The position numbers were made by a program, and so were the translations under genes. From the UHGV virus genome UHGV-2199876: a stretch of DNA of 29,731 nucleotides. One strand, 5' to 3'. This DNA comes from a virus. The stretch's first letter is position 1; each line of letters opens with the position of its first letter. Below the pieces are notes generated by a model. The model searched no databases, was not told the DNA's origin, and was given only the letters and a program-made list of their open reading frames with translations. This document shows positions 3,393 through 26,362 of the stretch, in pieces.

Positions 3393-3670
3393 AAGATTTA
3401 ACGCTCAAATTTGCAGACAGGGCCGACTTTTCGGCCTTTATGGAGAGTATTGGCTATTATGATGACGAGTCGATGCAGGGTGATATTCTTATTGACGTGA
3501 TAGGTAACGTGTACAAAGAAACCGGAGAACTGACTGAAGATGGCGAACCGGTATGTGTTAAGGAGGACGGATATTTTGTAAACGTGCGCATCATTAATGA
3601 TGCAAAAAAATCGTCAATATTCGATAAATACGCGATTGTTGTTGAGCATCAACTTCGTGGCTGGATGTGA
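3389..3670 (+). CDS. Hypothetical protein, tail-fibre associated (93 aa)
   Basis: Start overlaps the stf stop (ATGA-type coupling) and it lies between two fibre genes. No recognised motif. Confidence 0.4.
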   Translation: MKDLTLKFADRADFSAFMESIGYYDDESMQGDILIDVIGNVYKETGELTEDGEPVCVKEDGYFVNVRIINDAKKSSIFDKYAIVVEHQLRGWM

Positions 3671-3679
3671 GGGAGACAA

Positions 3680-4720
3680 ATGGCTACATCGACAGTAATT
3701 CCTGATGACATCAAAACGCTAAAATCCGACGTTAGCAAATTAAAAAACGATCAAGGAAGCTACGCAACAAAATCATATGTAGACAGCAAAGATGAAACCG
3801 TTGGTGACTGGTCTGCTTCATGGTATCAGCAGGTATTGCCAACTAGCGGAGCTATATTTGGGAGAAAACTCCGCTCAACTCACAGGACGGCAGGTGTTGA
3901 GGATGCGTATTGCGAACTATATCTCAAAAAATGGATAGACAGTCCAGGTAACGCAATGGCGCGCCTTAACCTGAACGATAACGGGAAAAACATTTGCTGG
4001 GACTTTACCAACCTTTATGGCGGTACGATGATTTTTCCCGGTGACAGCGGATACCTCAAAATGGGTAACTGCCTTATGTCATACAGCAAACGTGGAAGTA
4101 ACGCGCTTATTAAATTTGATTACACCGACACATTACAGATCAAATATGCTAATCATGGGTCAACCATGACATTAACCACACAGGGATCCGCTCACGCTGG
4201 CGTAACAACTAGACTATGGGGTAATTCTAGCCGTCCGGTTGTTTATGAAGTTGGCGTAGATGAGGCTCTGTATATGTTCTACGCACAGAAAACTACCAGC
4301 AATACCTACGAATTAACGGTTAACGGCGCGTGCAATGCAAGTGCATTTAATCAAGGCTCTGACCGGGATCTGAAAGACAATATTCAGGTGATCGATAATG
4401 CAACCGACCGCATTCGTAAAATGAACGGCTATACATACACGCTTAAAGAAAACGGTATGCCTTACGCTGGTGTTATTGCACAAGAAACCCTGGAAGCCAT
4501 CCCCGAAGCCGTAGGGTCTATGATGAAATATCCAGACGGCGGGAGTGGATTAGATGGAGAAGAAGGTGAACGGTATTACACAGTAGATTATTCTGGTGTT
4601 ACTGGCTTGCTTGTTCAGGTAGCCAGAGAGTCGGACGACAGAATAACAGCACTGGAAGAAGAAAACGCAGAATTAAGACAAAGATTATCTGCAATTGAGG
4701 CGGCGCTTGCGTCTAAATAA
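3680..4720 (+). CDS. Tail fibre / tailspike protein with C-terminal intramolecular chaperone (peptidase S74-like) domain
   Basis: 346-aa ORF containing GSDRDLKDNIQVIDNATDRIRKMNGYTYTLKENG...GVIAQE, which matches the S-D-x-x-L-K-x-N-I autoproteolytic chaperone motif of T5 L-shaped fibre and endosialidase-type proteins. C-terminal coiled coil. Confidence 0.7.
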   Translation: MATSTVIPDDIKTLKSDVSKLKNDQGSYATKSYVDSKDETVGDWSASWYQQVLPTSGAIFGRKLRSTHRTAGVEDAYCELYLKKWIDSPGNAMARLNLNDNGKNICWDFTNLYGGTMIFPGDSGYLKMGNCLMSYSKRGSNALIKFDYTDTLQIKYANHGSTMTLTTQGSAHAGVTTRLWGNSSRPVVYEVGVDEALYMFYAQKTTSNTYELTVNGACNASAFNQGSDRDLKDNIQVIDNATDRIRKMNGYTYTLKENGMPYAGVIAQETLEAIPEAVGSMMKYPDGGSGLDGEEGERYYTVDYSGVTGLLVQVARESDDRITALEEENAELRQRLSAIEAALASK

Positions 4721-5098: not shown

Positions 5099-6088
5099 TT
5101 AGTTATTTTTTACATCGGAAGAATTTCCAAACGCCTCCTCAAGAATAGATTCAATTTTACTCATTAGGTGCGATGGTATTTTTCTGTTATCTAATTTTAA
5201 TGTTGTGAAATTTTTCCCATATTTCGCCACAACACCGTCTCCATATTTCTTTTCCCTTTTCTCTCCATGTGAATTGTTTTTCTCAACAATAATGAAATCA
5301 TGAAGAGCCTGTATTATTCTTTGCGCATCTAAACTTTCACCTGATTTTTTCATCCTCAGCAACTGAGATGCAGCATTTTTCATGGCTGCTTCCTGTCCCT
5401 GATATGCTTTAAAAAGAGCGTCTCCTGCTCTGGCTGATAACTCACCAGGATGGTTAAATATTGCCAATATATCTTTAGGTAAACCGGCTGTATTAATACA
5501 TCGGCTGATAATATTTCTATCCACGCCTTCGGCTTCAGCTAAAGATTTTACGTTACCGTCAAATTCATGGAGCCTTCGCAGGTATCTTTTCCCCCTTTCA
5601 TAGGCGCTGATAGGTCTATAGTCGTTGCCTATCTGCGATAACCATTGCATTTGTTCATCATCTAAATCGCCAATAAGAACACGATAATCGCATCCAGTTA
5701 TAATGGCTGCTTTACGTCTTCGAGAACCATCAGCTACTTCAACAATACCTGACACTTTTCTTGCGAAAGCCGGATTTTGTTGCCCAGAAGTTAGAAAAGA
5801 TGGAATTAAATCAGCTAGAGAAGATTCATTTAATAAATCTTGATCACGCTCATTACCTAGCCATACCATTGTTGCCATTTCTACTTTATCTGCGGGGATC
5901 GTCTCTAACTTAAAGTTAACATTACGTCCGCATACTGGCAAAGTTATGCTATTACCGGTTAATGAACTCAGTTGACGTTTTAAATCACCAACCATAGGTG
6001 ATACCGGCTGATGTTCAGGTGCATGATGATTATTACTCATAATGCGATTAATATCCGGAGCATTTTTTAGAAGAGAGCGTTGTTTCAT
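5099..6088 (-). CDS. sopB: Partition protein SopB (ParB family, centromere-binding)
   Basis: 329-aa ORF immediately downstream of, and overlapping, the sopA ORF. Resembles F SopB as I remember it. Contains a ParB-like segment (RKAAIITGCDYRVLIGD). Confidence 0.85.
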   Translation of the reverse strand: MKQRSLLKNAPDINRIMSNNHHAPEHQPVSPMVGDLKRQLSSLTGNSITLPVCGRNVNFKLETIPADKVEMATMVWLGNERDQDLLNESSLADLIPSFLTSGQQNPAFARKVSGIVEVADGSRRRKAAIITGCDYRVLIGDLDDEQMQWLSQIGNDYRPISAYERGKRYLRRLHEFDGNVKSLAEAEGVDRNIISRCINTAGLPKDILAIFNHPGELSARAGDALFKAYQGQEAAMKNAASQLLRMKKSGESLDAQRIIQALHDFIIVEKNNSHGEKREKKYGDGVVAKYGKNFTTLKLDNRKIPSHLMSKIESILEEAFGNSSDVKNN

Positions 6089-7254
6089 TCTTCGTTCTCC
6101 CAGCGAGGTTTTATTAGATCATCAAAAATTTCTCGACAAACAGGGTCCCATATAGAGACGGCATTTCTCCATGCATTAAGTGTTGAACGCTGGTTTGCCG
6201 CTTGTTCAAATACTGTTCGCATTTTTATCTGACCTTTACCTACTTCATCGGTAACGCGTACAACCTGACGTAATACCATTGATCCCCATGTATTTCTTAT
6301 TTGCTCTTCCATCCATCGTGATTGATTTCCTGTAGTGAGACTATATTTAGTCAGAAGCAAGCGAACGGTCGGCTCAAATCCGCCTAGGTCAACGCTTTCT
6401 AGGAGATCGAGAAGCATTGTGAAAAACTGTAGAACAGAGGCGTAATCAAATAATTCTGCAGGGGTAGCAACAACGATAACGTCAGCTGCGCAAACAACGT
6501 TAATGGTTCCTGTACCGAGGTTTGGAGCACTATCTATAACGATAACATCGTAGTTATCCCAAACTGATTCTATAGCTGCGCGTAGCATCAGGTGAGGAGG
6601 GTGAGGCAATTTACCCTGAGCATGATATTGCATGAGATCTGTTTCTATACGGTGTAAAGCTAGGCAGCTAGGAATAATGTCCAGTCCAGGCCAGCATGTT
6701 GGTTTTATAGCATATTCAGCGTTATCGCGTTCGCCCAAGTAAAATGGCAGTAAAGTATCCTCGGCATGTATATGTAAATCAGGTACATAACCGTGATACA
6801 TGGAGGCTGTTCCCTGAGGATCGTTACCTTCAACTAAAAGAACACGATGACCTTGTAATGCTAGCCATTGTGCCTGATGTACTGCAGACGATGTTTTATA
6901 AACGCCGCCTTTGTGTGACATAACAGCAAGCACAACTGGGTTTTTATCTTGTGGCCGTTGGTTTGGGTTGCCAAAAACAGCTCGCATACTATTGATTTGA
7001 TCTATGGTATAACCGGCACGACGTTCAACTCTTCCTCTCATTTCAAAGTCAGGTGCAGGTAAACGCCCGTTCTTCTCAGCATCTCTTATTGCTTGAGGAG
7101 TTACACCAATTAAATCTGCTACTTCAGTTATCCCCCATCTACGCGTGATACGCCGAGCTTCAGGACTATCATCACCGAATTGAGCTATAGCAATTGCTTG
7201 GGTCATTTCTTGACCGCGCGTAACACAATCTTGTAATAACTTTTTCAAAGACAT
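6085..7254 (-). CDS. sopA: Partition ATPase SopA (ParA family, Walker-type)
   Basis: 389-aa ORF with the deviant Walker A KGGVYKTS and long stretches matching F SopA as I remember it (QGTASMYHGYVPDLHIHAEDTLLPFYLGE, IKPTCWPGLDIIPSCLALHRIET). Confidence 0.9.
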   Translation of the reverse strand: MSLKKLLQDCVTRGQEMTQAIAIAQFGDDSPEARRITRRWGITEVADLIGVTPQAIRDAEKNGRLPAPDFEMRGRVERRAGYTIDQINSMRAVFGNPNQRPQDKNPVVLAVMSHKGGVYKTSSAVHQAQWLALQGHRVLLVEGNDPQGTASMYHGYVPDLHIHAEDTLLPFYLGERDNAEYAIKPTCWPGLDIIPSCLALHRIETDLMQYHAQGKLPHPPHLMLRAAIESVWDNYDVIVIDSAPNLGTGTINVVCAADVIVVATPAELFDYASVLQFFTMLLDLLESVDLGGFEPTVRLLLTKYSLTTGNQSRWMEEQIRNTWGSMVLRQVVRVTDEVGKGQIKMRTVFEQAANQRSTLNAWRNAVSIWDPVCREIFDDLIKPRWENEE

Positions 7255-7539: not shown

Positions 7540-7875
7540 CAAAAGAACACAATCAAAGATCGTAAAACAACAATAATAATTCACACAAAATAAAGAACAC
7601 AAATACAGAAAACAACAACACAATAAAAACAAGAGAACACAAGCTATAAATATTACACCAATAGAGAACACTAATCAAGAACATATCAGCACATAATTCC
7701 CCATTATACGCGCGTATAATGGGGAATTATGTGCTGATTTTCAGAACAAAGTCAAGGAACAAATTTTAATGTTCCGATATTGTGTTTTTATTTATTATCC
7801 GTTATTGTGTTATGTTAATTTGTGACTAAGTTAACGCGTTATTAGTTATCTTATTCTCAAATTGTGTTACGATAA
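7540..7875. other. tos-like region: telomere-resolution palindrome flanked by inverted AACACAA / TTGTGTT repeats
   Basis: Left of the palindrome: AGAACACAA at 7544, 7594, 7634, with 7665 and 7678 as variants. Right of it: ATTGTGTT at 7779, 7804, 7862. The two sets are in inverted orientation around 7685-7738. Confidence 0.7.
7685..7738. other. telRL-like telomere resolution site (54-bp perfect palindrome with a central CGCGCG)
   Basis: atcagcacataattccccattatacgcg | cgcgtataatggggaattatgtgctgat checked base by base: perfect dyad over 54 bp. Closely resembles the N15 telRL/telO palindrome as I remember it (TATCAGCACACAATTGCCCATTATACGCGCGTATAATGG...). Sits just upstream of telN. Confidence 0.85.
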
Positions 7876-7902
7876 TCCGAGCGGATAATCAGGAGAGGAA
7901 AG

Positions 7903-9816
7903 ATGAGCAAAGTAAAAATCGGTGAATTAATAAACTCACTTGTTAGCGATGTTGAGTCAATAGATAACTCTGACCGTCCTCAAGGGGAGAAAACAAAAAA
8001 AATAAAGGCTGTTGCATTAAAATTTAAAAATGCATTATTTAATGACAAGCGAAAGTTTAGGGGTAAAGGATTAGAAAAAAGAATTACAGCCAACACATTC
8101 AATGCCTATATGAGCAGGGCCAGAAAACGGTTTGATGATAAACTTCATCATAGCTTTGAAAAAAATATACATCGCCTATCTGAAAAGTATCCTTTATATA
8201 ATGAGGAGCTATTATCATGGCTTTCTCTACCTGCTGCCGATATTCGCCAGAGAATGTCAGCTTTACAGGCAAAATTAAAATTAATTCTCCCTCTATCAGA
8301 AGATTTATCTAATATCAGAATTGGCGATAACAAAAATCATAATAAGTTATTAAAATTATCAAATAAATATAAAGAGTGGCAATTCGCCATTTCTGATTTA
8401 ACTAGCGATAACTGGAAAGATAAGCGCGATTATTTATATAAATTACTACAGCAAGGATCTGCCTTACTTGAGGAGTTGAATCAGCTAAAAGTTAACCATG
8501 AGATTCTCTATCATCTTCAACTAAGCCCTGCCGAACGCGCATCTATCCAGCAACGATGGGCGGACGTTCTGCACAATAAGAAACGTAACGTGGTGGTCAT
8601 TGATTACCCCAAATATATGCAAGCTATTTACGATATTATAAATAGCCCTGCTACATTAAATAATCTAAACACTCGTTCAGGTATGGCTCCTTTGGCATTT
8701 GCACTTGCTGCATTGTCAGGAAGACGAATGATTGAGATTATGTATCAAGGTACATTTACTGTTTCTGGTAAGTATACCGTTGATTTTTTAGGCCAAGCAA
8801 AAAAAAGAACTTCTGATGATATAACCAGAAAAATATATACATTATGCGAAGCAAAAACATTTGTTTATTTAATAAATGTACTTCGCTCATGCCCAGCAGC
8901 ATCTGATTTTGATGATGTCGTTAAAGGTTATGGAGATAACGACACACGCTCTGAAAACGGACGGATTAATGCCATATTAGCAAAGGCTTTTAACCCGTGG
9001 GTTAAATCATTTTTCAAAGATGACCGCCGTGTTTATAAAGATAGTCGTGCTATTTATGCCCGTATTGCGTATGAAATGTTTTTCCGCGTAGATCCTCGTT
9101 GGAAAAACGTAGATGAGGATGTTTTCTTTATGGAAATTTTAGGCCATGACGATGAAAACACTCAATTACACTATAAGCAATTCAAGCTGGCCAACTTCTC
9201 AAAGACATGGAGGCCAAATACTGGAAACGAAAATACCAGGCTGGAAGCATTGCAGCAGCTTGATGACGAAATGCCAGGATTCGCCAGAGGAGATGCCGGA
9301 GTTCGTCTGCATAACACAGTTAAGCAGCTGGTAGAGCAGGACCCCTCTATAAAAATCACGAACAGCACTCTAAGAGCATTCAAATTTAGCCCTACAATGA
9401 TTAGTCGATACCTAGAATTTGCTGCTGATGCTCTGGGGCAATTTGTTGGCGAAAATGGACAATGGCAGCTGAAAATAGATTCTCCAGAAATCGTTATGCC
9501 TGACGAAGAAGAGCTGGAAGCAATACCTGAACAGACGGATGAATTATCAGAGGATGACGATCTGGATGACGACGAAATTGAGATAGAGATAGAGGAAGAG
9601 GAAGAGGAAGAGGAAGAGGAAGAGAGCGTAGAAGAACAGCAACCGCCCGCGCCTTCTTCACCTGTATCTAAGCCGGTATTTAAGCCTGTGAGAAATATTG
9701 GTGATGGATCATACGTTGTTGAATTTCATTATAATGGCCAGAATTATGCTTGGTCCGGCAGTGCAAACAGCCCTATATCAGCAATGCAGTTAGCATGGCT
9801 GACATATTTCGGATAA
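7903..9816 (+). CDS. telN: Protelomerase (telomere resolvase) TelN
   Basis: 637-aa ORF closely matching N15 TelN as I remember it (MSKVKIGELIN..., RITANTFNAYMSRARKRFDDKLHHSF, VVVIDYP, GRINAILAKAFNPWVKSFF). Acidic C-terminal tract. SD GGAGAGG upstream. Confidence 0.93.
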   Translation: MSKVKIGELINSLVSDVESIDNSDRPQGEKTKKIKAVALKFKNALFNDKRKFRGKGLEKRITANTFNAYMSRARKRFDDKLHHSFEKNIHRLSEKYPLYNEELLSWLSLPAADIRQRMSALQAKLKLILPLSEDLSNIRIGDNKNHNKLLKLSNKYKEWQFAISDLTSDNWKDKRDYLYKLLQQGSALLEELNQLKVNHEILYHLQLSPAERASIQQRWADVLHNKKRNVVVIDYPKYMQAIYDIINSPATLNNLNTRSGMAPLAFALAALSGRRMIEIMYQGTFTVSGKYTVDFLGQAKKRTSDDITRKIYTLCEAKTFVYLINVLRSCPAASDFDDVVKGYGDNDTRSENGRINAILAKAFNPWVKSFFKDDRRVYKDSRAIYARIAYEMFFRVDPRWKNVDEDVFFMEILGHDDENTQLHYKQFKLANFSKTWRPNTGNENTRLEALQQLDDEMPGFARGDAGVRLHNTVKQLVEQDPSIKITNSTLRAFKFSPTMISRYLEFAADALGQFVGENGQWQLKIDSPEIVMPDEEELEAIPEQTDELSEDDDLDDDEIEIEIEEEEEEEEEEESVEEQQPPAPSSPVSKPVFKPVRNIGDGSYVVEFHYNGQNYAWSGSANSPISAMQLAWLTYFG

Positions 9817-10423: not shown

Positions 10424-10640
10424 CACTCCGTTTTATTGGTCGTGCTACCACCAGAGTTGCGAATCTCTTTATTGGTGGTAGCCCAGGCGGGGTTCGCAAT
10501 ACCGGTAAACGAAGAAACCGGCCCGACCGAAGTCAGCCCCACCTGAGCCACCATAATTCGGATATGCGCAGGTCTATACACACAAAAAAACACGCTGGCG
10601 CGTGTTGTGCGCTTCGTTTTGCCAGGATTGCGAAGTCCCG
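10424..10640 (-). promoter_or_regulatory. Candidate RNA regulatory leader (structured, with mutually complementary heptamers) upstream of the icd-like/Bro-N ORFs
   Basis: About 530 bp with no credible ORF. Perfect 10-bp stem GCTACCACCA...TGGTGGTAGC (10444-10482) with TTGCGAA in its loop; the complementary TTCGCAA at 10495-10501; a second TTGCGAA at 10629-10635. Confidence 0.3.
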
Positions 10641-10797
10641 ACTGCGGGATTTACCGCAGCGAGGTGACTTTACCTCCAAAACGACGCACACGTCAATAAT
10701 TTGCAAAGACATTTTACCCCGTGACCAGTCACGGGGACAGGTGTTTTTATAGTTTGCTTGAACGAGTGATCAGAAGTTGATCGTTAATCAAAGGCCA

Positions 10798-15000: not shown

Positions 15001-16021
15001 TCCCTTTTCCTTCTGTGGCTGATTTCCGGTCATTATCCAGTGCGCAGGTGATTTTTGCCGCCGGGTACATGTTTACCAGTTGTTCCACAACATGAACCAT
15101 GTTATTAGCGGATACAGCGACAACCACAGCGTCAAAGCGTTTATCTTTTTTCGTGGCAAGCCAGATGGATGCACCAGTAGCAAAACCTTCTGTAACAGCG
15201 ATGTTTTGCGCCCCTTTTAGCTCACCGATAACAAAGCAGGCACCGACGAAATCGCCGCTGGTTACGGCGCTGGTCTGGTATTTTCCACCTTGTTTGTCGA
15301 TTCGCTGCCAACCCACAATACGACCATCGTAACGACCGTCCAGGTGAGCCAGAGGGATAGCCATATACGTGGTTGGCCCCCTGCTCCATTTTGCGCTGTC
15401 GTGACTGGTCACGCGACGCACATCACACGAATTAAAAACGTCACGAATACCTTTTTTAATCGCATATGGCCATGAGCCGTCTTCTGCAGGAGCATGTTCC
15501 CACGCGCTGTGGAATGCCAGCCATCCCAGCAAACGTTCATGGTCCATTTGGTTGTTTTTCAGGTCATTAATTCGTTTTTGTTCTTCACGGCGACGACGTG
15601 CTTCGGCCTGACGTTCTATTCTTGCCCGTTCTTCTTCCGGTTGTGCGACCACGGTCGCATTATTCCGTTGTTGCTCACGGCGATATTCAGAAAACAGGAA
15701 GGAGAAACCGCTCCATGAGCCAGCATCGCTGCCTTTATGGACGAAGTTAATGAACGGGTAATCAATCCCTTTGCTGTGTTCCAGCCGGGAGTAAATTTCT
15801 ACGCGTCCTTTGAGGCTCTTTTCGAGAGCTTCTGGAGATGTTTTATTGTATGAAGAGTAACGCTCAACACCCCCGCGAGGGTTGAGTTGGATGTTGTCGG
15901 AACAGGCAGACCAGTTGATACCAGCCATCTGTGCCAGCTCGGTTAGTTCATCCCGTGCTGCTTCAATTAGCGAGAACGGATCGCTGCCAAAGCGATCCGC
16001 ATAGAAATCGTTTAATGTCAT
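12026..16021 (-). CDS. repA: Replication protein RepA (multidomain primase-helicase, N15 RepA / P4 alpha-like)
   Basis: 1331-aa ORF with Walker A (VRAGMGSGKST) in the central helicase region and a primase-like N-terminal part. Size and position match N15 repA. Confidence 0.9.
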   Translation of the reverse strand: MTLNDFYADRFGSDPFSLIEAARDELTELAQMAGINWSACSDNIQLNPRGGVERYSSYNKTSPEALEKSLKGRVEIYSRLEHSKGIDYPFINFVHKGSDAGSWSGFSFLFSEYRREQQRNNATVVAQPEEERARIERQAEARRRREEQKRINDLKNNQMDHERLLGWLAFHSAWEHAPAEDGSWPYAIKKGIRDVFNSCDVRRVTSHDSAKWSRGPTTYMAIPLAHLDGRYDGRIVGWQRIDKQGGKYQTSAVTSGDFVGACFVIGELKGAQNIAVTEGFATGASIWLATKKDKRFDAVVVAVSANNMVHVVEQLVNMYPAAKITCALDNDRKSATEGKGNTGLRTGYEILSKFNDVRCVYPTFEDDPQMECSDFNDLHKLRGLRETARQLFATANRLKTGTDLLSLTLNRLKTIKRDNRRTFAKELLRAVDIGMLTCPVPNSPSDLFNMFCIVLREMGLENIYRATVKDHIARRLNKKCRIAQAPRSFSERITDPNKRPQHITYKRFETSVMTDDVLKYVQSLQGIVIVRAGMGSGKSTGLLRPLMHSSERGISVAHRVSLIGGLWEMMTEGKGVKADILHYQDPGYQEMAPYASKLTICINSIVKNCWQPLMRQHDYFGFDEATQGLRAVLSGRAMENPVAVFNTLIDALARTEQHPIMVDADANDLLVDLAELAMKRREELGLPAWLQIHVIELPVDVRNRETGEPIRVFYTEKDRIMTEVVKAVSDGEKIMLATDSSTFAEDVTATLRMHFPGKKFLCVNQKNKPEPEVEAFTNQPKKMVKKYDGLIYSPSISSGVSIEQKHFDRHFGMFCGEVVPSDAVQMLRRDRTAKEFIIGFDKARAKRETDPQKIERAFAQALLATAGMNGELTDVVFDGDRISMGVANTDFTRMKIKAAAIEASARNDYASNMICIMHSDGYKVSPLATDYAANDIGKDLRKEARDIVWEQTLDLHLNTETPQESEREELLKKRALTLEEQAKLVRWDIENELKLPVEEGTLKFYFDGARDKVRRYETMLLDEVTARRYDREEAAINFTYAYRQAGQWQYFVVTAMTREQADDVFKTKFPGIIDYKVKATPTVEVGARGFYALKSATLRQYFIDCGINPETMTGEATQERLKFARDNLMTAERRDLLNNVLHIGGFMTPKGKPKVPEALFKNICDSLGLKTGKRRGRDGDKRPTLRFVEPESAAFMLDILVQRQKDGLTLKTRKAEKTAIEMDRDLDLNIYMDDKTRSTNEQVQNAPHSVISEALAVLPVAVPESWAMSALSGEELATMSSWSSASIAMTFASLYLTEFMDHLSSNELRRLREYITGNSSCSYEEQGAFYG
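15644..15659. other. sopC-like centromere site (TGCGACC-AC-GGTCGCA) inside repA
   Basis: 16-bp match to the inverted repeat shared by the four other sites. Same 7-2-7 architecture as F sopC (TGGGACC-AC-GGTCCCA). Confidence 0.55.
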
Positions 16022-16927: not shown

Positions 16928-17176
16928 ATGCGATTTATTGCTTATAATAACCGCATGAAACCAGAAGAACTTATTCGCCACTTTGGCAGTGTAGAAAAAG
17001 CAGCGGCTGGGGTAGGTGTAACACCCGGTGCTGTTTACCAATGGTTAACCGCTGGAGAGATTCCTTCATTGCGGCAAAGTGATATTGAAGTTCGTACTGC
17101 TTACAAGCTGAAGAGTGACTTTACAACTCGGCGGGTAAAGCAGTCGATTAAGGAGAGCCGTAAGCGTGGAGCTTGA
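16928..17176 (+). CDS. cro: Cro-like small DNA-binding regulator
   Basis: 82-aa ORF (73 aa if it starts at ATG 16955) divergent from cB. Contains a GVTPGAVYQWL HTH-like segment. Confidence 0.6.
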   Translation: MRFIAYNNRMKPEELIRHFGSVEKAAAGVGVTPGAVYQWLTAGEIPSLRQSDIEVRTAYKLKSDFTTRRVKQSIKESRKRGA

Positions 17177-17876
17177 GTATATACGCAGCTGCGTCTCCAC
17201 GGCATTGGCTGATATTCATTATCGCCAGCGTGGCATCCTAGAGGTCCAGCTTGAGCAGATGCGTCTAGGCAGATCAGGACGCTTTAACAATAAACCAGTC
17301 CGGTCAATCAGTGTAGGTGATGATAACTCATACGAAGTGTCTGTTCCTGCTGAGCCGGTTAGATTCCACCAGGGCAAAACATTTAAACAATCATCAATGT
17401 TGCTCACTGATATTGATTTTCAGAGCGCCAGCTGGCGCAGGGCTATTGGTCAGTTGAATAACGAGGAATCAGCCTGGCTTTATTATTGCTACGGATGCAA
17501 GCCTAACTACAACAATGATGTGATTGTTTGTCAGTGGTTATGGCTTGATTTTCTGGTTGCGCATTCGGGTGGCGGGTTTAAAAAAATGAAGGCCTCCACG
17601 AAAAAAGCCATGAGAAAATTGATTTATTACGCGGCACAGCAGGTTAAGTCAGAACTTACGTGTGCTGAGGCAGTTGATGATAGAGAACAGGACAGGCAGC
17701 TGAGTTTTCTACTGAATATATCTATTGATAGCTGGAGACAAGATTATAAAGAACGCTGGCTTTTAATTAAGTCGCGATGTCTGAGCTTAAATCGAACTGC
17801 ATTATTAAATGCGGCGGAGAAGCGCAGTGAAATCATCAAACGCCATCGGGCAGGAAGTGCCATTCTGCCTTTGTAA
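17166..17876 (+). CDS. Hypothetical protein at the position of the late antiterminator (Q-like?)
   Basis: 236-aa ORF immediately after cro with a GTG start. Cys cluster YYCYGCKPNYNNDVIVCQW. Assignment is by position only. Confidence 0.3.
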   Translation: MELEYIRSCVSTALADIHYRQRGILEVQLEQMRLGRSGRFNNKPVRSISVGDDNSYEVSVPAEPVRFHQGKTFKQSSMLLTDIDFQSASWRRAIGQLNNEESAWLYYCYGCKPNYNNDVIVCQWLWLDFLVAHSGGGFKKMKASTKKAMRKLIYYAAQQVKSELTCAEAVDDREQDRQLSFLLNISIDSWRQDYKERWLLIKSRCLSLNRTALLNAAEKRSEIIKRHRAGSAILPL

Positions 17877-17883
17877 ACAAGTT

Positions 17884-18129
17884 ATGTTCAGGAAACCGTC
17901 GAAGCCGGAATTAAGGTATTCGGGGGTAAGAAATGAATATGTTATCTGGTGTCCAACTTGTGGTTACAGGACACGACCAGATAGTAATAAGCAGTCTGTA
18001 ATTGCCGATTGGTATTTATCAAATCAGCCAGGTAATAAGCATATAGAAAATCTTTGGATTAAGCGTTACTTGGAAATCAGAGAGGGTGCGACCGTGGTCG
18101 CACAAGAAAATGAAAATAACGCCATTTAA
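17884..18129 (+). CDS. Small zinc-finger protein (CPTCG motif; Lar-like?)
   Basis: About 81 aa from ATG 17884 containing WCPTCGYRTRPD. The ORF-track start at 17809 overlaps the upstream gene. Confidence 0.4.
   Translation: MFRKPSKPELRYSGVRNEYVIWCPTCGYRTRPDSNKQSVIADWYLSNQPGNKHIENLWIKRYLEIREGATVVAQENENNAI
18087..18102. other. sopC-like centromere site (TGCGACC-GT-GGTCGCA)
   Basis: Same inverted repeat, at the 3' end of the zinc-finger ORF. Confidence 0.6.
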
Positions 18130-21232: not shown

Positions 21233-21520
21233 TTAATAAACAGCGCGAATATCGATGGTTGCGCCGCAGGCATGAGCATATTTAGCCAAAGTTTTCATAC
21301 TTGCCCCTAAAGGATTGCTTTCCAGGCGGCTGATGGCTGACGGTCGCAACCCCATTCGTTCAGCCAGAGCTGATTTCGTTAAACCTGCTCTTTCCCTCAT
21401 TTCGTATAACATTTCGACCATCTCCAGCTCTTTATCGGCCTCTTCATATCCTTTGATGGCTTCTGGAGTGTTGAGAAGTTTTTCTTTTACTTCGTTAAAC
21501 GGGATGCCTTTCGCTTTCAT
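21233..21520 (-). CDS. HTH (XRE-family) antitoxin
   Basis: 95-aa ORF with an HTH (LTKSALAERMGLRPSAISRLE). Its start overlaps the stop of the upstream toxin-like ORF (HigB-HigA-type order). Confidence 0.7.
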   Translation of the reverse strand: MKAKGIPFNEVKEKLLNTPEAIKGYEEADKELEMVEMLYEMRERAGLTKSALAERMGLRPSAISRLESNPLGASMKTLAKYAHACGATIDIRAVY

Positions 21521-21831
21521 CAGTTCATCTCCTTCAGGCGAGTTCTGGCGATTTCGATAGCCTTCACCGGTGTTTTCTGTGTCTTTTTTACAAATGCATG
21601 CAATAGATAAATTTCGTTACCAGTCGCGTAGGCGTACAGCGTTCTTGCGATGTTTTTATCCCCTACTCGTAGTTCAAAAAGCCCTCCACCTATTACACGG
21701 CTATGGGGCATCTTCAGTTTGTTGCCTTCCTTCTCCAGTCGCTCAATTAATCTGGTCATGCGACCTCGCAAATCATCTGGTAGTTCAAGCAGTTCATCCA
21801 GTGCTGCAGGGTGGGTTATCACGTTAAACAT
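21520..21831 (-). CDS. Gp49-like (HigB/RelE-superfamily) toxin
   Basis: 103 aa with the 'phage-derived Gp49-like' character (KMPHSRVIGGGLFELRVGD...ARTLYAY...IYLLHAFVKKTQKTP). The family is named after N15 gene 49. Confidence 0.7.
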   Translation of the reverse strand: MFNVITHPAALDELLELPDDLRGRMTRLIERLEKEGNKLKMPHSRVIGGGLFELRVGDKNIARTLYAYATGNEIYLLHAFVKKTQKTPVKAIEIARTRLKEMN

Positions 21832-22231: not shown

Positions 22232-22459
22232 ATGAATATTAATGAAATTCGTGGAAATATGACTGAAGCGGCCCTGAGTGTGGAATGTGTTATGCGTGGA
22301 TACCCACGCATTTCCCTGAAAGAGTTAAGCGAAGCCTGTTTTTTGAGTCAAGCTGCCGTTGAATTTATCATCGAACAGATGATCTGTTTTGGGGTTGCAA
22401 AGCGTAGCGGGTCTGGTCGATATTCTTTGACCGATGAATATAAGCAGGCAACTTTCTAA
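22232..22459 (+). CDS. Hypothetical protein (75 aa)
   Basis: ORF with a GAGAGG SD. Followed by a sopC-like site and a terminator. Confidence 0.45.
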   Translation: MNINEIRGNMTEAALSVECVMRGYPRISLKELSEACFLSQAAVEFIIEQMICFGVAKRSGSGRYSLTDEYKQATF

Positions 22460-22465
22460 AAACTG

Positions 22466-22481
22466 TGCGACCACGGTCGCA
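22466..22481. other. sopC-like centromere site (TGCGACC-AC-GGTCGCA)
   Basis: Inverted repeat immediately after the stop of the 22232 ORF. Confidence 0.6.
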
Positions 22482-22556
22482 CAGCACAAAAACGAAAAAG
22501 CTTGGCAAAATTACGGTTTTTAGTTATTGTTTTGTTAAGTTGGGTTTTTTGTACCC

Positions 22557-22582
22557 AACAGCCAACAAGCCGCCTTTATGGC
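22557..22582 (+). terminator. Rho-independent terminator candidate
   Basis: AGCCGCC-tttat-GGCGGTT followed by TTTTTTTG. Confidence 0.55.
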
Positions 22583-22681
22583 GGTTTTTTTGTGCCTGAA
22601 AAGTGGGCGCAGGACAAGTTGCAGCTTGTCCTGCGGTCAACCCATGCCAGAGCTATAGGCTGAACCTAAAGCCCACCCGCG

Positions 22682-23803
22682 ATGCGCATCGCCGGGTTAG
22701 CTTACCCAGGCAAAAAAATAATAGCTATGTTCAAAACCACTAATATTCATGGCGCGCAACTCGTTTGCGCAGATTCTCTGCAATTTATCAAAACCATCCC
22801 TGATAACTCGGTCAATTTGATTGCAACAGACCCACCATACTTCGGCGTAAAGGCTAACGCATGGGATAACCAGTGGGATAGCGATGCTGACTTTTTGGGG
22901 TGGATTGATGAATTTTTGGCAGAATTTTGGCGGATATTGGCCCCTAATGGCAGCCTGTATATGTTTACCGGCTCTCGCCTTGCGTCAAAAATTGAATTAT
23001 TAACTCGCGACCGTTTCAATGTTCTGAACCATATCATTTGGGCTAAACCCAGTGGTATGTGGCGCGGTTGTCATAAAGAAAGTTTAAGGGCTTATTTTCC
23101 TGCCACTGAAAGAATATTATTTGCAGAGCATTACGGCGCGTCAGGTTATGCTAAAGGTCAGTCAGGTTATGCTTCAAAATGTGCAGATTTAAGAAAAAAT
23201 ATTTTTTCTCCACTAATTGATGCTTTTTCGCTGGCTCGCCGTCAGTTAGATATATCAGCCGCAGACATTAATTCAGCAACAGGAAAGCAGATGTGTTCGC
23301 ACTGGTTTTCTTATTCGCAGTGGCGGCTTCCATCATTAAGTGATTTTAATAAACTATGCGAATTATTTCGCAGGAAGGCAGATTCACTCGGTGTCCCGTG
23401 TCCATATCCTTTTAATGTTGATTATTCAGAACATGAAAAGCGTTATAGCGATCTGAAATTGCGTTATGAGGAAGTAAAGAAGCAGTATGATGATTTGAAG
23501 GCTCAGTATGAAAATTTGCGCCGCCCATTTCATGTTACTGCTGATGTACCTTATACCGATGTATGGGAGTTTCCTCCTGTGCAATATTATCCTGGCAAGC
23601 ACCCATGTGAAAAACCTGCAGCGATGATGGAACATATTATAAAAAGTAGTTCCCGCCCCGGAGATATCGTTGCCGATTTCTTTATGGGATCAGGCTCTAC
23701 TATTAAAGCCGCGCTGAAGTTAGGTCGTCAGGCAATCGGTATTGAGATTGAGGGTGAACGTTATCTTCAGACAGTTGATGAAGTGAAAAAGTTATTTGAG
23801 TAA
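22682..23803 (+). CDS. Orphan DNA methyltransferase (N6-adenine / N4-cytosine type, DPPY motif)
   Basis: Motif IV IATDPPYFG near the N-terminus and motif I (FxGxG) DIVADFFMGSGSTIKAA near the C-terminus. No adjacent restriction endonuclease. Start may be ATG 22727. Confidence 0.8.
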   Translation: MRIAGLAYPGKKIIAMFKTTNIHGAQLVCADSLQFIKTIPDNSVNLIATDPPYFGVKANAWDNQWDSDADFLGWIDEFLAEFWRILAPNGSLYMFTGSRLASKIELLTRDRFNVLNHIIWAKPSGMWRGCHKESLRAYFPATERILFAEHYGASGYAKGQSGYASKCADLRKNIFSPLIDAFSLARRQLDISAADINSATGKQMCSHWFSYSQWRLPSLSDFNKLCELFRRKADSLGVPCPYPFNVDYSEHEKRYSDLKLRYEEVKKQYDDLKAQYENLRRPFHVTADVPYTDVWEFPPVQYYPGKHPCEKPAAMMEHIIKSSSRPGDIVADFFMGSGSTIKAALKLGRQAIGIEIEGERYLQTVDEVKKLFE

Positions 23804-23898
23804 CTGAAGAATATATTCCCCTGCCGTTTTTGATGGGGTTATTTCTCGCCGTATAGTTTCCAAGCCGAAACCTCAGCAACTATTGCGAGGTAAGAGAT

Positions 23899-24171
23899 AT
23901 GAAGATGGATGAACGATACAGCAGCGCATCTTATGGTAGTGCTGGTCTTACTGCGTTCTTTGCCAGCCTGTCATTGCAGGATTGGGGCTTCATTATCGGT
24001 GTCGCGTTCAGCATTATCCTCGGTGTACTTACATACCGGCTCAATAAACGCGAGCAGATGAAGCGCACGAAGATATTGCAGGACATATTGGATAAAACTG
24101 ATGCCAATAATATTTCCGCCACGGCGATGGTTATTGGTGAATTGGGAAAGAGAGCACCGAAGGAAATATGA
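23899..24171 (+). CDS. Class II holin (pinholin-like, two TM segments, dual-start MKM)
   Basis: 90 aa with two TM segments ([11 protein letters not shown] and [18 protein letters not shown]), like S21-type pinholins. Met1-Lys2-Met3 dual start. Overlaps the endolysin start. Confidence 0.7.
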
Positions 24172-24668
24172 TGCAGTCATCATTACGCAAAGCTGTCGCA
24201 ACTGCTATTGGTGGCGGGGCTATTGCCATAGCATCTGTGCTCATCTCTGGTCCGAGCGGCAACGATGGTCTGGAAGGTGTGAGACATAACCCCTACAAAG
24301 ACATCGTTGGTGTATGGACTGTATGTTACGGGCATACAGGAAAAGACATTATGCTCGGTAAAACGTATACCGAAGCAGAATGCAAAGCTCTCCTGAATAA
24401 AGACCTTGCTACTGTCGCCAGACAAATTAACCCGTACATCAAAGTCGATATACCGGAAACAACGCGTGGTGCTCTTTACTCGTTCGTTTACAACGTGGGT
24501 GCAGGCAATTTCAGAACATCGACACTTCTTCGCAAAATCAACCAGGGCGATATCAAAGGTGCATGTGATCAACTACGTCGCTGGACATATGCTGGCGGTA
24601 AGCAATGGAAAGGGCTGATGACTCGCCGTGAGATTGAGCGTGAAGTCTGTTTGTGGGGGCAGCAATGA
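24168..24668 (+). CDS. SAR endolysin (T4-lysozyme-like muramidase with N-terminal signal-anchor-release domain)
   Basis: N-terminal Gly/Ala-rich weak TM segment ([18 protein letters not shown]), then an E-x8-D-x5-T catalytic triad pattern ([16 protein letters not shown]). Confidence 0.85.
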
Positions 24669-25132
24669 GCAGAGTAACCGCAATTATCTCCGCACTGGTT
24701 ATCTGCATCATCGTCTGCCTGTCGTGGGCTGTTAATCATTACCGTGATAACGCCATCGCCTACAAAGAACAGCGTGATAAAAAAGTCAGTGAGCTGAAGC
24801 AGGCGACCGCCACCATCGCTGACATGCAGCAGCGTCAGCGTGATGTTGCTGCGCTCGATGCAAAATACACGAAGGAGTTGGCTGATGCGAAAGCTGAAAA
24901 TGATGCTCTTCGGCGCAAGCTTGATAATGGTGGTCGGGTGCTCGTCAAAGGAAAATGCTCTGTGCCATCCTCAGCCGAAACCTCCAGCGCCTCCGGCATG
25001 GGCAATGATGCCACCGTCGAACTCTCTCCAGTTGCTGGACGAAACGTTCTCGGTATCCGGGACGGAATCATCAGAGACCAGACAGCACTGAGAACGCTTC
25101 AGGAATACATCAAGACGCAATGCCCGAATTAA
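24653..25132 (+). CDS. Rz: Rz i-spanin
   Basis: The N-terminus [31 protein letters not shown] matches lambda Rz as I remember it. Coiled-coil periplasmic domain. Confidence 0.85.
24885..25091 (+). CDS. Rz1: Rz1 o-spanin (lipoprotein embedded in +1 frame of Rz)
   Basis: [21 protein letters not shown]... has a lipobox (VVGC), then a proline-rich stretch [19 protein letters not shown] upstream. Confidence 0.75.
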
Positions 25133-25173: not shown

Positions 25174-25485
25174 ATGAAAATTTATATTGCCGGGCCAATG
25201 ACTGGATATGAGAACTTTAATCGTGACGCCTTTAATAAAGAGGCAGATCGTTTGTCACGACATGGTCACTCTGTCTTGAATCCAGCCACTTTGCCTAATG
25301 GTCTGACACAACGTGAATACATGGATATTTGCTTTGCAATGCTTCGTTGTGCTGATGCTATTTTGATGCTTCCTGGCTGGAAAGCGTCTGCTGGAGCAAC
25401 TGCTGAGTATCATTACGCATACAAGATGGAGATGCCGGTATTCACTACGCTGAATTACCCGCCAGCTTGTTCCTCTGTAGCATAA
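25174..25485 (+). CDS. DUF4406-like / nucleoside 2-deoxyribosyltransferase-fold protein
   Basis: 103 aa starting MKIYIAGPMTG, with ...NPA... and ...LPGW... The family name is from memory of the motif only. Confidence 0.45.
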   Translation: MKIYIAGPMTGYENFNRDAFNKEADRLSRHGHSVLNPATLPNGLTQREYMDICFAMLRCADAILMLPGWKASAGATAEYHYAYKMEMPVFTTLNYPPACSSVA

Positions 25486-25505
25486 AAATCTCTTTGTTTC
25501 TCGTG

Positions 25506-25521
25506 TGCGACCGTGGTCGCA
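25506..25521. other. sopC-like centromere site (TGCGACC-GT-GGTCGCA)
   Basis: Inverted repeat 20 bp after the DUF4406-like stop and just before direct-repeat copy 1. Confidence 0.6.
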
Positions 25522-25532
25522 CATTAAATACC

Positions 25533-25700
25533 GCGCTGCATCGTCGCCGTATTTCCGCATTAACCATGACCGTAGCCCGACGGGGAACTCCTCTGCGCGA
25601 GTGTGCGGAAATAATCAAAAACGATGCACACCGGGTTTTTACCGCGCTAATGATTCGCGGGTTTGTCCCTCATGCTCGCCAGTCCTGTGCGAGGGTGGAA
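25533..25700 (+). repeat. Direct repeat, copy 1 (about 170 bp)
   Basis: About 90% identical to 26473-26645 (gcgctgcatcgtcgccgtatttccgcattaaccatgaccgtagcccgacgggg...). Confidence 0.8.
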
Positions 25701-25725
25701 GAAACAGGGCATGTATTCAGGAGCG

Positions 25726-25741
25726 TGCGACCGTGGTCGCA
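25726..25741. other. sopC-like centromere site (TGCGACC-GT-GGTCGCA)
   Basis: Inverted repeat about 25 bp upstream of the ATG of the 25765 ORF. Confidence 0.6.
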
Positions 25742-25764
25742 CGGTATCTTTGTCAGGAGGTTTT

Positions 25765-26362
25765 GATGAAAGAGTTGCAAAAAATTAATTCAATAATGGA
25801 AAGATTAAGTGCTCTTGAGCGTAAGCTGGACGATTGTGGAAAGCTGTGTGTTGAAAAGCAAAATGAGCTTTACCGGGAATTTTTTACAATCGTAAGTGAG
25901 CTGATGCCAATTGTTAATAACTGCCTGATGACATCCAGATTTTTTAATGTCGATGCTACTACATCCAGAAAATTTTCTGTGAAAATTCAAGAAAGAGTTT
26001 CTGGTAGTGTGACAAGAGAGATGGCTGAACAGTTGGTGGCAATGAGCAATAAAACAAAAAGAAAAAAGGCATTGCTTGTAACAGCAAATCAGCTTTCAGG
26101 GCGCGTTGACTTTCAGGTCAGACAGGGTGGGCGTGTACTGGTAAATGATGCGTTCGTTGGACGTAGCTTTAGTCCTTACTCGATAAAATATGATGTTGAT
26201 GCAGATGATCAGGATATCAGCATTTCCTGGAAATCTGAGACAGCAGGGATTGTATTAACAGCAGAGTTGTTGAGTGATGATAAAAATGATGTCCAGCATC
26301 ATTTGGACGAAAAGAATCATATTTCTGAAATTTGTATGAAGCCACGCAGCATCACTAATTAA
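25765..26362 (+). CDS. Hypothetical AT-rich moron protein (199 aa)
   Basis: ORF with a CAGGAGG SD at 25754-25760. Visibly more AT-rich than its surroundings. Bracketed by the two direct-repeat copies. The ORF-track N-terminal extension (from 25505) is not credible. Confidence 0.45.

Follow-up and report, generated by a model that had tools for sequence, protein, structure and literature searches.

The non-specific N6-adenine methyltransferases M.EcoGI and M.EcoGII are encoded by prophages of Escherichia coli O104:H4; neither is expressed in the native strain, and their over-expression is harmful (PMC5778455). The work that characterized M.EcoGII as a prophage-encoded, non-specific adenine methyltransferase also named phage 1720a-02 as the carrier of a "very similar" enzyme (Murray et al. 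2018, PMC5778455). M.EcoGII has been modelled as a Rossmann core with a four-helix recognition domain and a charged helical linker, and the active reconstructed ancestor Anc250 lies between it and the site-specific M.PflMI, the nearest site-specific enzyme, which is just 27% identical to M.EcoGII (PMC11551740). All the purified reconstructed ancestors methylated bulk DNA and RNA at rates near that of M.EcoGII, and their DNA activity varied little (PMC11551740). Here we analyze a DNA methyltransferase gene in the viral genome UHGV-2199876, a stretch of 29,731 nucleotides referred to below as the window. To judge from sequence comparison, the gene, at 22727 to 23803 on the plus strand, is the orthologue of N15 gp52, the "gene 52" DNA adenine methyltransferase, and we consider it likely that its product is an N6-adenine methylase of the M.EcoGII family which heads a Q-dependent late operon and protects progeny DNA from restriction. 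The gene is already known, in that N15 gene 52 stands in a known late-promoter context and the M.EcoGII family has been characterized, and the phiKO2 and N15 records already annotate this arrangement, in which a partition site and a late promoter are followed by a terminator, gp52 and the lysis genes. With an M.EcoGII-family enzyme both characterized and commercially sold, the gene flagged in an earlier note on this stretch amounts, by itself, to a rediscovery of N15 gene 52. What is potentially new is the leader RNA alone, together with its companion gene for a small winged helix-turn-helix (wHTH) protein.

The window genome is an N15-like (Ravinvirus) linear phage-plasmid. Positions 22400 to 24200 are 100% identical in DNA to the Escherichia phages YDC107_1 (genus Ravinvirus) and PhiR46_1, which annotate the methyltransferase gene as "DNA methylase family protein" (358 amino acids) and "DNA adenine methylase" (373 amino acids), respectively, and the other functions encoded in the window include SopB, SopA, protelomerase, a CB-like repressor, Cro, and Q. 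The window methyltransferase shares 83.7% of its amino acids with N15 gp52, 62% with phiKO2 gp52, and 59% with the product of PY54 gene 60, and each of these genes lies between gene 51 and the holin gene. The same order of gene 50, gene 51, SopB-binding repeat, promoter, terminator, methylase, holin, lysozyme, and Rz is found in the window and in N15, phiKO2, and PY54, with the −35 and −10 elements and the terminator conserved base for base in blocks. The exact protein sequence falls in a cluster of 574 member sequences, and 3285 cluster representatives match it at an E value of 1e-20 or below.

The longest open reading frame (ORF) at the locus, 22682 to 23803 on the plus strand, spans 373 amino acids and matches the PF01555 N6_N4_Mtase profile (E value of 1.3e-46; 159.7 to 159.9 bits against a cut-off of 26.7 bits), so that the DPPY methyltransferase described in the earlier note is confirmed. 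The catalytic motif IV, DPPY, is found at 22829 to 22840 (residues 35 to 38 from the Met at 22727), and D35, P36, P37, and Y38 are invariant among 33 homologues; the S-adenosylmethionine (AdoMet or SAM)-binding motif I, F-M-G-S-G, is found at 23681 to 23695 (residues 319 to 323), with F319, G321, S322, and G323 invariant and M320 nearly so. Since motif IV precedes motif I, with a helical insert of 150 residues separating the two, the order is that of the beta class, as the earlier note had read from DPPY preceding FxGxG. The presence of DPPY instead of SPPY favors adenine as the target. A sequence search of the PDB returned only beta-class enzymes, with M.RsrI at 1e-22 followed by M.BceJIV, MboIIA, CcrM, and N4C enzymes. 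An AlphaFold (AF2) model built on 33 homologues, with a pLDDT averaging 80.9, displays a split Rossmann core, a helical insert at residues 148 to 221 (helices 148 to 159, 161 to 174, 178 to 185, and 204 to 221), and a long helix at residues 233 to 263, and in doing so reproduces the published architecture of M.EcoGII. Its top Foldseek matches in the PDB are CcrM, MboIIA, M.BceJIV, and RsrI, with E values from 1e-15 to 1e-11. By its motifs and its predicted fold, the window protein is a beta-class amino-methyltransferase.

Translation probably starts at ATG 22727, the codon that falls opposite Met1 of M.EcoGII in alignment and opposite the starts annotated for the phiKO2, PY54, and YDC107_1 proteins, giving a coding sequence (CDS) of 358 amino acids; the 5′ end proposed in the earlier note, 22682, is probably 45 nucleotides too far upstream. 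ATG 22682 was rejected as the true start, as no such ATG exists in phiKO2, it is out of frame in PY54, and it sits within a covarying hairpin of the conserved RNA structure described below. The N15 RefSeq record (NC_001901) annotates gene 52 as CDS 5235 to 6089, of 284 amino acids, with a start downstream of DPPY. The full 362/377-codon frame of N15 is open from 4956/5001 to 6089 and is 84% identical to the window protein, and the start of gene 52 is probably mis-annotated in that record.

The region upstream of the gene resembles the pR′-qut-tR′ arrangement of lambda in that a Q-family gene, a sigma-70 promoter, a −10-like hexamer at the transcript start, and a short terminated RNA are found together, with the late and lysis genes beyond the terminator. 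The late promoter at 22502 to 22530 (plus strand) consists of a −35 element TTGGCA (22502 to 22507), a 17-bp spacer, and a −10 element TATTGT (22525 to 22530); 9 of 12 positions match the consensus, and the promoter is conserved in the alignment of N15-like relatives. The predicted late transcript starts near 22537 and ends about 58 nucleotides on, at a strong intrinsic terminator at 22567 to 22595, whose 8-bp stem with five GC pairs is followed by a U7 run; a 62-nucleotide piece covering this short RNA folds at −26.4 kcal/mol (z = −5.0). Within the initial transcribed region (22536 to 22559, plus strand), the −10-like TAAGTT at 22536 to 22541 (TATGTT in phiKO2) forms an invariant alignment block at about +1 to +5 of the predicted transcript and may serve as a sigma-70-dependent pause site at which Q is loaded, while the conserved 5′ hairpin at 22539 to 22559 has arms which covary between the window, N15, and PY54. 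The N15 record annotates −35/−10 signals and a terminator at exactly homologous positions, and the phiKO2 record lists, in this order, a "putative plasmid partitioning site," a "putative late promoter," a terminator, Gp52, a terminator, and the lysis genes.

Because the promoter directly precedes it, we regard the terminator as the tR′-like stop of the late promoter's own short RNA, and it is not simply the end of an upstream operon. The earlier note had proposed from the terminator alone that expression was separate or antitermination dependent; the latter is very likely, given the Q gene and the N15 and phiKO2 annotations, while the sigma-70 promoter between the repeat and the terminator had been overlooked. 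The Q antiterminator gene lies at 17166 to 17876 on the plus strand (PF06323, E value of 4e-85), and we infer that Q is the factor on which readthrough depends; no Q-binding element could be defined. Unlike in lambda, where Q adjoins its target promoter, the Q gene is 4.6 kb away from the promoter here, a partition-protein binding site abuts that promoter, and the first gene under the predicted action of Q is a methyltransferase with a long structured leader. The gene is directly followed by the holin (23899 to 24171), the endolysin or lysozyme (24168 to 24668), and Rz (24653 to 25132), all on the plus strand and identified by Pfam and by the annotations of the identical phages, so that the lysis cassette noted previously stands where it was placed. 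Homologous genes of SfV and of the Shiga toxin (Stx) phage 1720a-02 also lie just after Q and a terminator and before the lysis genes or stx, and the late-operon position is therefore a property of the enzyme family.

The element that the earlier note had called sopC-like is an exact N15-type SopB-binding inverted repeat (IR) at 22465 to 22482, 20 bp upstream of the −35 element. The sequence GTGCGACCACGGTCGCAC at this position is letter for letter the core of the N15 centromere repeats IR1 and IR4 (PMC7205306, Table 4) and conforms to the definition of an N15-type Sop site as a 16- to 18-bp palindrome, GTGCGACC-NN-GGTCGCAC. SopB binding and partition activity have been established for the identical N15 core sequence (PMC7205306). 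Judged by its flanks, the N15 repeat between gene 51 and gene 52 is IR3, of which 22465 to 22482 is the positional equivalent, differing in the central dinucleotide (AC in the window, AT in IR3), and the "putative plasmid partitioning site" of phiKO2 occupies the homologous spot. The 16-bp repeat core occurs at five places in the window (15644 to 15659, 18087 to 18102, 22466 to 22481, 25506 to 25521, and 25726 to 25741) against 0.25 expected by chance. The second of them, with its full repeat at 18086 to 18103, takes the place of N15 IR2 relative to Q and shares its left flank, AGAGGGTGCGACC, with two differing central bases. The window thus has five such repeats, and N15 has been described with four; one of the five is within a repA-like gene, another just downstream of Q, and two are 220 bp apart between the DUF4406 gene and the ORF at 25766 to 26362. 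Both partition proteins are encoded on the minus strand, SopB by the ORF at 5099 to 6088 (SopB_HTH match, E value of 1.6e-23) and SopA, a ParA-type ATPase, by the ORF at 6085 to 7254. The N15 partition system has reportedly been linked to late transcription by Ravin, Rech and Lane in 2008.

These elements suggest the following course of events. In the lysogen, transcripts from the late promoter would stop at the terminator and leave the enzyme silent. After induction, Q-modified RNA polymerase would read through the terminator, yielding first the methyltransferase and then the lysis and morphogenesis proteins. The enzyme would methylate the adenines of phage DNA during its replication, showing little if any preference for sequence, and the progeny genomes would then resist adenine-sensitive restriction in the next host. 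The SopB-bound repeat may tie the partition system to late transcription, and the structured leader of 130 nucleotides could impose a second, post-transcriptional control on a potentially toxic enzyme. Silence in the lysogen is indicated only indirectly, by relatives: M.EcoGI and M.EcoGII, as mentioned above, and the N15-like phage NAR688, whose lysogen proteome contained nine phage proteins, the methyltransferase not being among them. In the Yersinia phage P840, lysis and lysogeny are unimpaired when the orthologous gene is interrupted by an insertion (PMC10612081). The P840 insertion and the NAR688 proteome fit a non-essential, lysis-phase anti-restriction function.

The step of this scheme that concerns specificity is the one for which M.EcoGII is most informative. 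The window methyltransferase aligns with M.EcoGII (sequence from Table S1 of PMC11551740) from end to end, with the same start and 56% identity, and it is 61% identical to the engineered SUPREM, 69% to Anc250, and 57% to the protein of Stx phage 1720a-02. Since full-length identity to M.EcoGII and Anc250 is high, whereas M.EcoGII shares only 27% identity with M.PflMI, its closest relative of proven site specificity, the window enzyme is predicted, with fair though limited assurance, to methylate adenines at N6 non-specifically or with very low specificity; the earlier note's statement that target specificity cannot be deduced from sequence was too pessimistic. The window enzyme and M.EcoGII share the beta-class motif order, the predicted architecture, the prophage origin, the position just after Q and a late terminator, and the same structured leader, and both are expected to be silent in lysogens. 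They differ in their carriers, an integrated lambdoid prophage for M.EcoGII and a linear plasmid prophage here, and in the late promoter and Sop centromere site which, in the N15 group, come between the small wHTH ORF and the leader. The activity and specificity of the window enzyme are predicted from its relatives.

Several observations weigh against the view that the gene encodes a non-specific, anti-restriction methylase driven from the late promoter. The promoter matches the consensus at just 9 of 12 positions, and the region shows no enrichment of promoter-like sites (8 against 5.4 expected); its status as a promoter derives from its conservation, from the −35/−10 signals annotated in N15, and from its label in phiKO2. 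The dispensability of the gene in P840 was seen on a laboratory host, which is compatible with anti-restriction and is no proof of it (PMC10612081). In the target-recognition domain, identity to M.EcoGII drops to 46%, against 65 to 68% for the core, and the window protein carries a 9-residue insertion at the end of this domain; in addition, databases call relatives "site-specific," though this naming is automatic. Being the least conserved folded part, the recognition domain leaves room for a narrower specificity, and the enzyme might be an orphan adenine methyltransferase that recognizes a defined short sequence motif and serves either for protection from a single class of restriction enzymes or for regulation. 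The wider class also contains other low-specificity relatives, M.HaeV (BA) and M.CsaII (AB) (PMC5778455), which would be in keeping with such a motif. We nevertheless judge this unlikely in view of the full-length alignment to M.EcoGII, the distance of M.PflMI, and the closeness to Anc250, whose methylation of bulk DNA and RNA was about as rapid as that of M.EcoGII.

The preferred reading, protection of progeny DNA by a non-specific adenine methylase, takes up the candidate anti-restriction role suggested by the earlier note, a function proposed in the literature for M.EcoGII, the closest characterized relative (PMC5778455). A main role other than DNA protection, be it the methylation of RNA (phage late mRNAs or host RNAs) or the marking of DNA for the control of packaging or replication, is conceivable inasmuch as M.EcoGII and the reconstructed ancestors methylate single-stranded RNA and DNA:RNA hybrids (PMC5778455, PMC11551740), and the elaborate RNA leader could in principle be bound or modified by the enzyme. 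However, the RNA activity of M.EcoGII is far below its DNA activity (PMC5778455), nothing in our analysis points to an RNA target, and the intact lysis and lysogeny of the P840 insertion mutant exclude an essential role in packaging or replication (PMC10612081), so that we consider a role of this kind very improbable. The self-marking function that had been offered as an alternative to anti-restriction found no support, in view of the same P840 insertion.

The window methyltransferase is an orphan, with no nuclease partner. Within all ORFs between 17166 and 26805, Pfam and PADLOC searches recognized only phage functions and one RelE/ParE-HTH toxin-antitoxin pair, with no restriction-endonuclease domain or defence function, and no restriction partner is annotated in the identical phages YDC107_1 and PhiR46_1; the absence of a partner nearby, noted previously, thus holds. 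PADLOC models do call the protein a "Type II methyltransferase" (best match E value of 1.6e-118), and the gene might on that ground be taken for one half of a restriction-modification or other defence system with an unrecognized nuclease. The adjoining endonuclease gene that characterizes type II restriction-modification systems is missing, though, and both neighbors have fixed phage functions, the gene being flanked upstream by the small wHTH ORF plus late promoter and downstream by the holin, an arrangement which recurs in N15, phiKO2, PY54, and SfV. Expression limited to the late lytic phase is, in addition, incompatible with a maintained restriction-modification system, and we regard such a system as extremely unlikely here. 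In N15-type telomere phages the first gene of the late operon probably encodes a non-specific adenine methylase, and virion DNA heavily modified with N6-methyladenine (m6A) is predicted. This would matter for the evasion of restriction, for m6A-dependent (type IV) defences, and for the way in which nanopore or single-molecule real-time (SMRT) data obtained on induced lysogens are read.

Between the terminator and the start codon lies a conserved structured 5′ leader, at 22596 to 22726 on the plus strand. Over about 130 nucleotides it is conserved beyond what would be expected of a spacer across N15, an Enterobacter Ravinvirus, phiKO2, 48ST307, and PY54, and the same blocks precede the M.EcoGII-like gene of Stx phage 1720a-02. 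The blocks follow one another in the order AUGGGCG, variable hairpin, CCCAUG, ARGCCCA, hairpin with a UGCGCA loop, and AGCYUA. In domain 1, UGGG:CCCAU closes a long hairpin, and in domain 2, ARGC:GCYU closes the hairpin with the UGCGCA loop, while the invariant UGGGC and GCCCA elements allow an alternative pairing. The leader of the window folds with a minimum free energy of −53.6 kcal/mol (z of −4.0). RNAalifold applied to six leader sequences gave a predicted structure of 27 pairs, in 10 of which the changes are compensatory, and from this prediction we built a covariance model, R1, which matches the window at 22593 to 22736 with 142 bits and finds nothing further in its 29.7 kb.

Exactly one R1 match was found in 56 of 86 sources, and in 55 of these 56 it ends about 10 nucleotides inside the methylase ORF; the weakest match (phiARM81ld, E value of 7e-4) lies just upstream of a Com-like ORF instead. 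In the covariance-model alignment, which is fitted to the model itself, 94.6% of the cells are paired, compared with 30 to 43% when the partners are slid by one to three columns. Changes on both sides affect 20 of the 27 pairs, the covariation score is 0.525 against 0.04 to 0.12 in the slid controls, and none of 500 shuffles reaches the paired-cell, both-side-change, and covariation values of the alignment. Single-sequence folds, which are free of any alignment, place a hairpin of 10 to 17 bp at the same spot in every member, the sequences being quite different, and the many G-U pairs favor the sense strand. RNAalifold on a MAFFT alignment of 45 sequences recovered only the invariant UGGGC:GCCCA helix, with the hairpin arms misaligned, and was replaced by the covariance-model alignment. 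A small coding ORF in the leader (22603 to 22743) is unlikely, since the indels are not multiples of three and the changes in the stems are compensatory.

When viral contigs were scanned with a pattern drawn from DNA only, 121 instances of the leader emerged, 120 of which have the start of an M.EcoGII-family gene within 90 nucleotides; in the remaining one (L143), the methylase gene is cut by an assembly gap. In these scans the structure was found solely ahead of M.EcoGII-family genes, in N15-like and lambdoid/Stx phages. A hairpin and T-run stand immediately upstream in 92 of 111 distinct leaders. Rfam 15 yielded no match to the leader at gathering score in the window and six related loci, nor at E values up to 5 on positions 22300 to 24000; the best sub-threshold match, ctRNA_pGA1 (22.9 bits against a threshold of 45 bits), extends over the terminator plus the first hairpin, and we put it down to chance.

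By inspection of the sequences, the leaders are devoid of a canonical Shine-Dalgarno sequence. In the window, AGCUAU at 22648 to 22653 can pair with AUAGCU at 22720 to 22725, which abuts the AUG, and the lambdoid group has an equivalent pairing, GGAUCA:UGAUCC. The energy of the pairing between the middle of the leader and the region of the start codon ranges from −10 to −14.5 kcal/mol in the lambdoid group and is −7.6 kcal/mol in the window and weak in the phiKO2 group, and the native pairings have a mean of −8.7 kcal/mol against −6.7 kcal/mol for cross-pairings. That sequestration of the start-codon region in this way holds for every leader was just partly supported, as the pairing is not universal.

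With a lower degree of confidence than for the enzyme itself, we propose that the leader at 22596 to 22726 might be an undescribed cis-regulatory RNA which, in N15-like and lambdoid/Stx phages, gates the translation of a potentially lethal non-specific methyltransferase, as the conserved structure and its placement suggest. In many members a helix would bury the start-codon region, and the trigger could be a protein, such as gp51 or the methyltransferase itself, or a small molecule such as SAM or S-adenosylhomocysteine (SAH). The gp51-like small winged-helix ORF at 22232 to 22459 (plus strand), recognized by a weak HTH_24 match and by 28% identity to SfV orf47 (E value of 8e-4), may be a regulator of the methylase; in 75 of 103 loci, the ORF immediately preceding the leader is a homologue. 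The leader, with its accompanying small wHTH gene, could account for the way in which prophages hold back a toxic enzyme until lysis, and since the same element precedes M.EcoGII-like genes next to stx, the leader is experimentally accessible in well-studied systems. The gp51-like ORF is also present at the loci L003 (approximately 3654 to 3850) and L010 (2157 to 2351), ahead of a terminator-like hairpin and the leader. In lambdoid phages it ends 20 to 29 nucleotides ahead of the leader, and in the N15-like ones the Sop repeat and the late promoter are inserted between the two.

Post-transcriptional control or a leader RNA ahead of phage DNA-modification genes has precedents. In Mu, com-mom provides translational control ahead of a phage DNA-modification gene with a toxic product, and the D12-methyl RNA motif is a conserved leader RNA upstream of Dam-class methylase genes. 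The window has no Com-like ORF, and its leader, whose regulatory role is one that we infer, has no match in Rfam at any of the thresholds used. Relatives of the gene show other arrangements. Homologues about 55 to 60% identical are found without this leader at 11 loci (L038, L040, L042, L043, L045, L068, L071, L074, L079, L080, and L087), where another conserved sequence lies about 160 nucleotides upstream of the ATG, GCCTTGAGTACCTGAGACCCA...GGAGAGGAAGCA...hairpin...TTCAAGGCTC, and is followed by a normal GGAG ribosome-binding site, and the Vibrio-type group of relatives has a different conserved leader. The Aeromonas phage phiARM81ld has a leader-like element at 2201 to 2344, a Com-like zinc-finger ORF at 2335 to 2550, and the methylase at 2474 to 3529; the annotated Com-like ORF overlaps the methylase start and resembles the com-mom translational control of Mu. 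The variety of leaders and the Com-like ORF among the relatives fit the idea that such genes need tight translational control.

The surroundings of the gene differ from those in N15 in a few further respects. N15 has a second methylase, the C5-cytosine enzyme of gene 58, which follows its DUF4406 gene and is without counterpart in the window phage; the window keeps the DUF4406 gene (25174 to 25485), and an unrelated ORF with no Pfam match stands where N15 has gene 58, so that the window has one methylase and N15 has two (window 25174 to 26362 compared with N15 7847 to 9155). The toxin-antitoxin pair at 21233 to 21831 on the minus strand, a Gp49/RelE-ParE-like toxin (PF05973, E value of 2.5e-29) with an HTH antitoxin, consists of homologues of N15 genes 48 and 49, just upstream of genes 50 and 51. 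The ORF at 17809 to 18129 on the plus strand, which overlaps the end of Q and within which the IR2-like repeat lies, matches Lar, though below threshold (21.1 bits, with a cut-off of 28.6 bits); if real, this restriction-alleviation protein would be a second anti-restriction function. Finally, two Rfam families match side by side at gathering score on the minus strand, C4 antisense RNA at 10471 to 10558 (82 bits) and isrK at 10585 to 10660 (52.8 bits), and 10471 to 10660 is presumably the N15-type anti-immunity region with the control RNA of the antirepressor.

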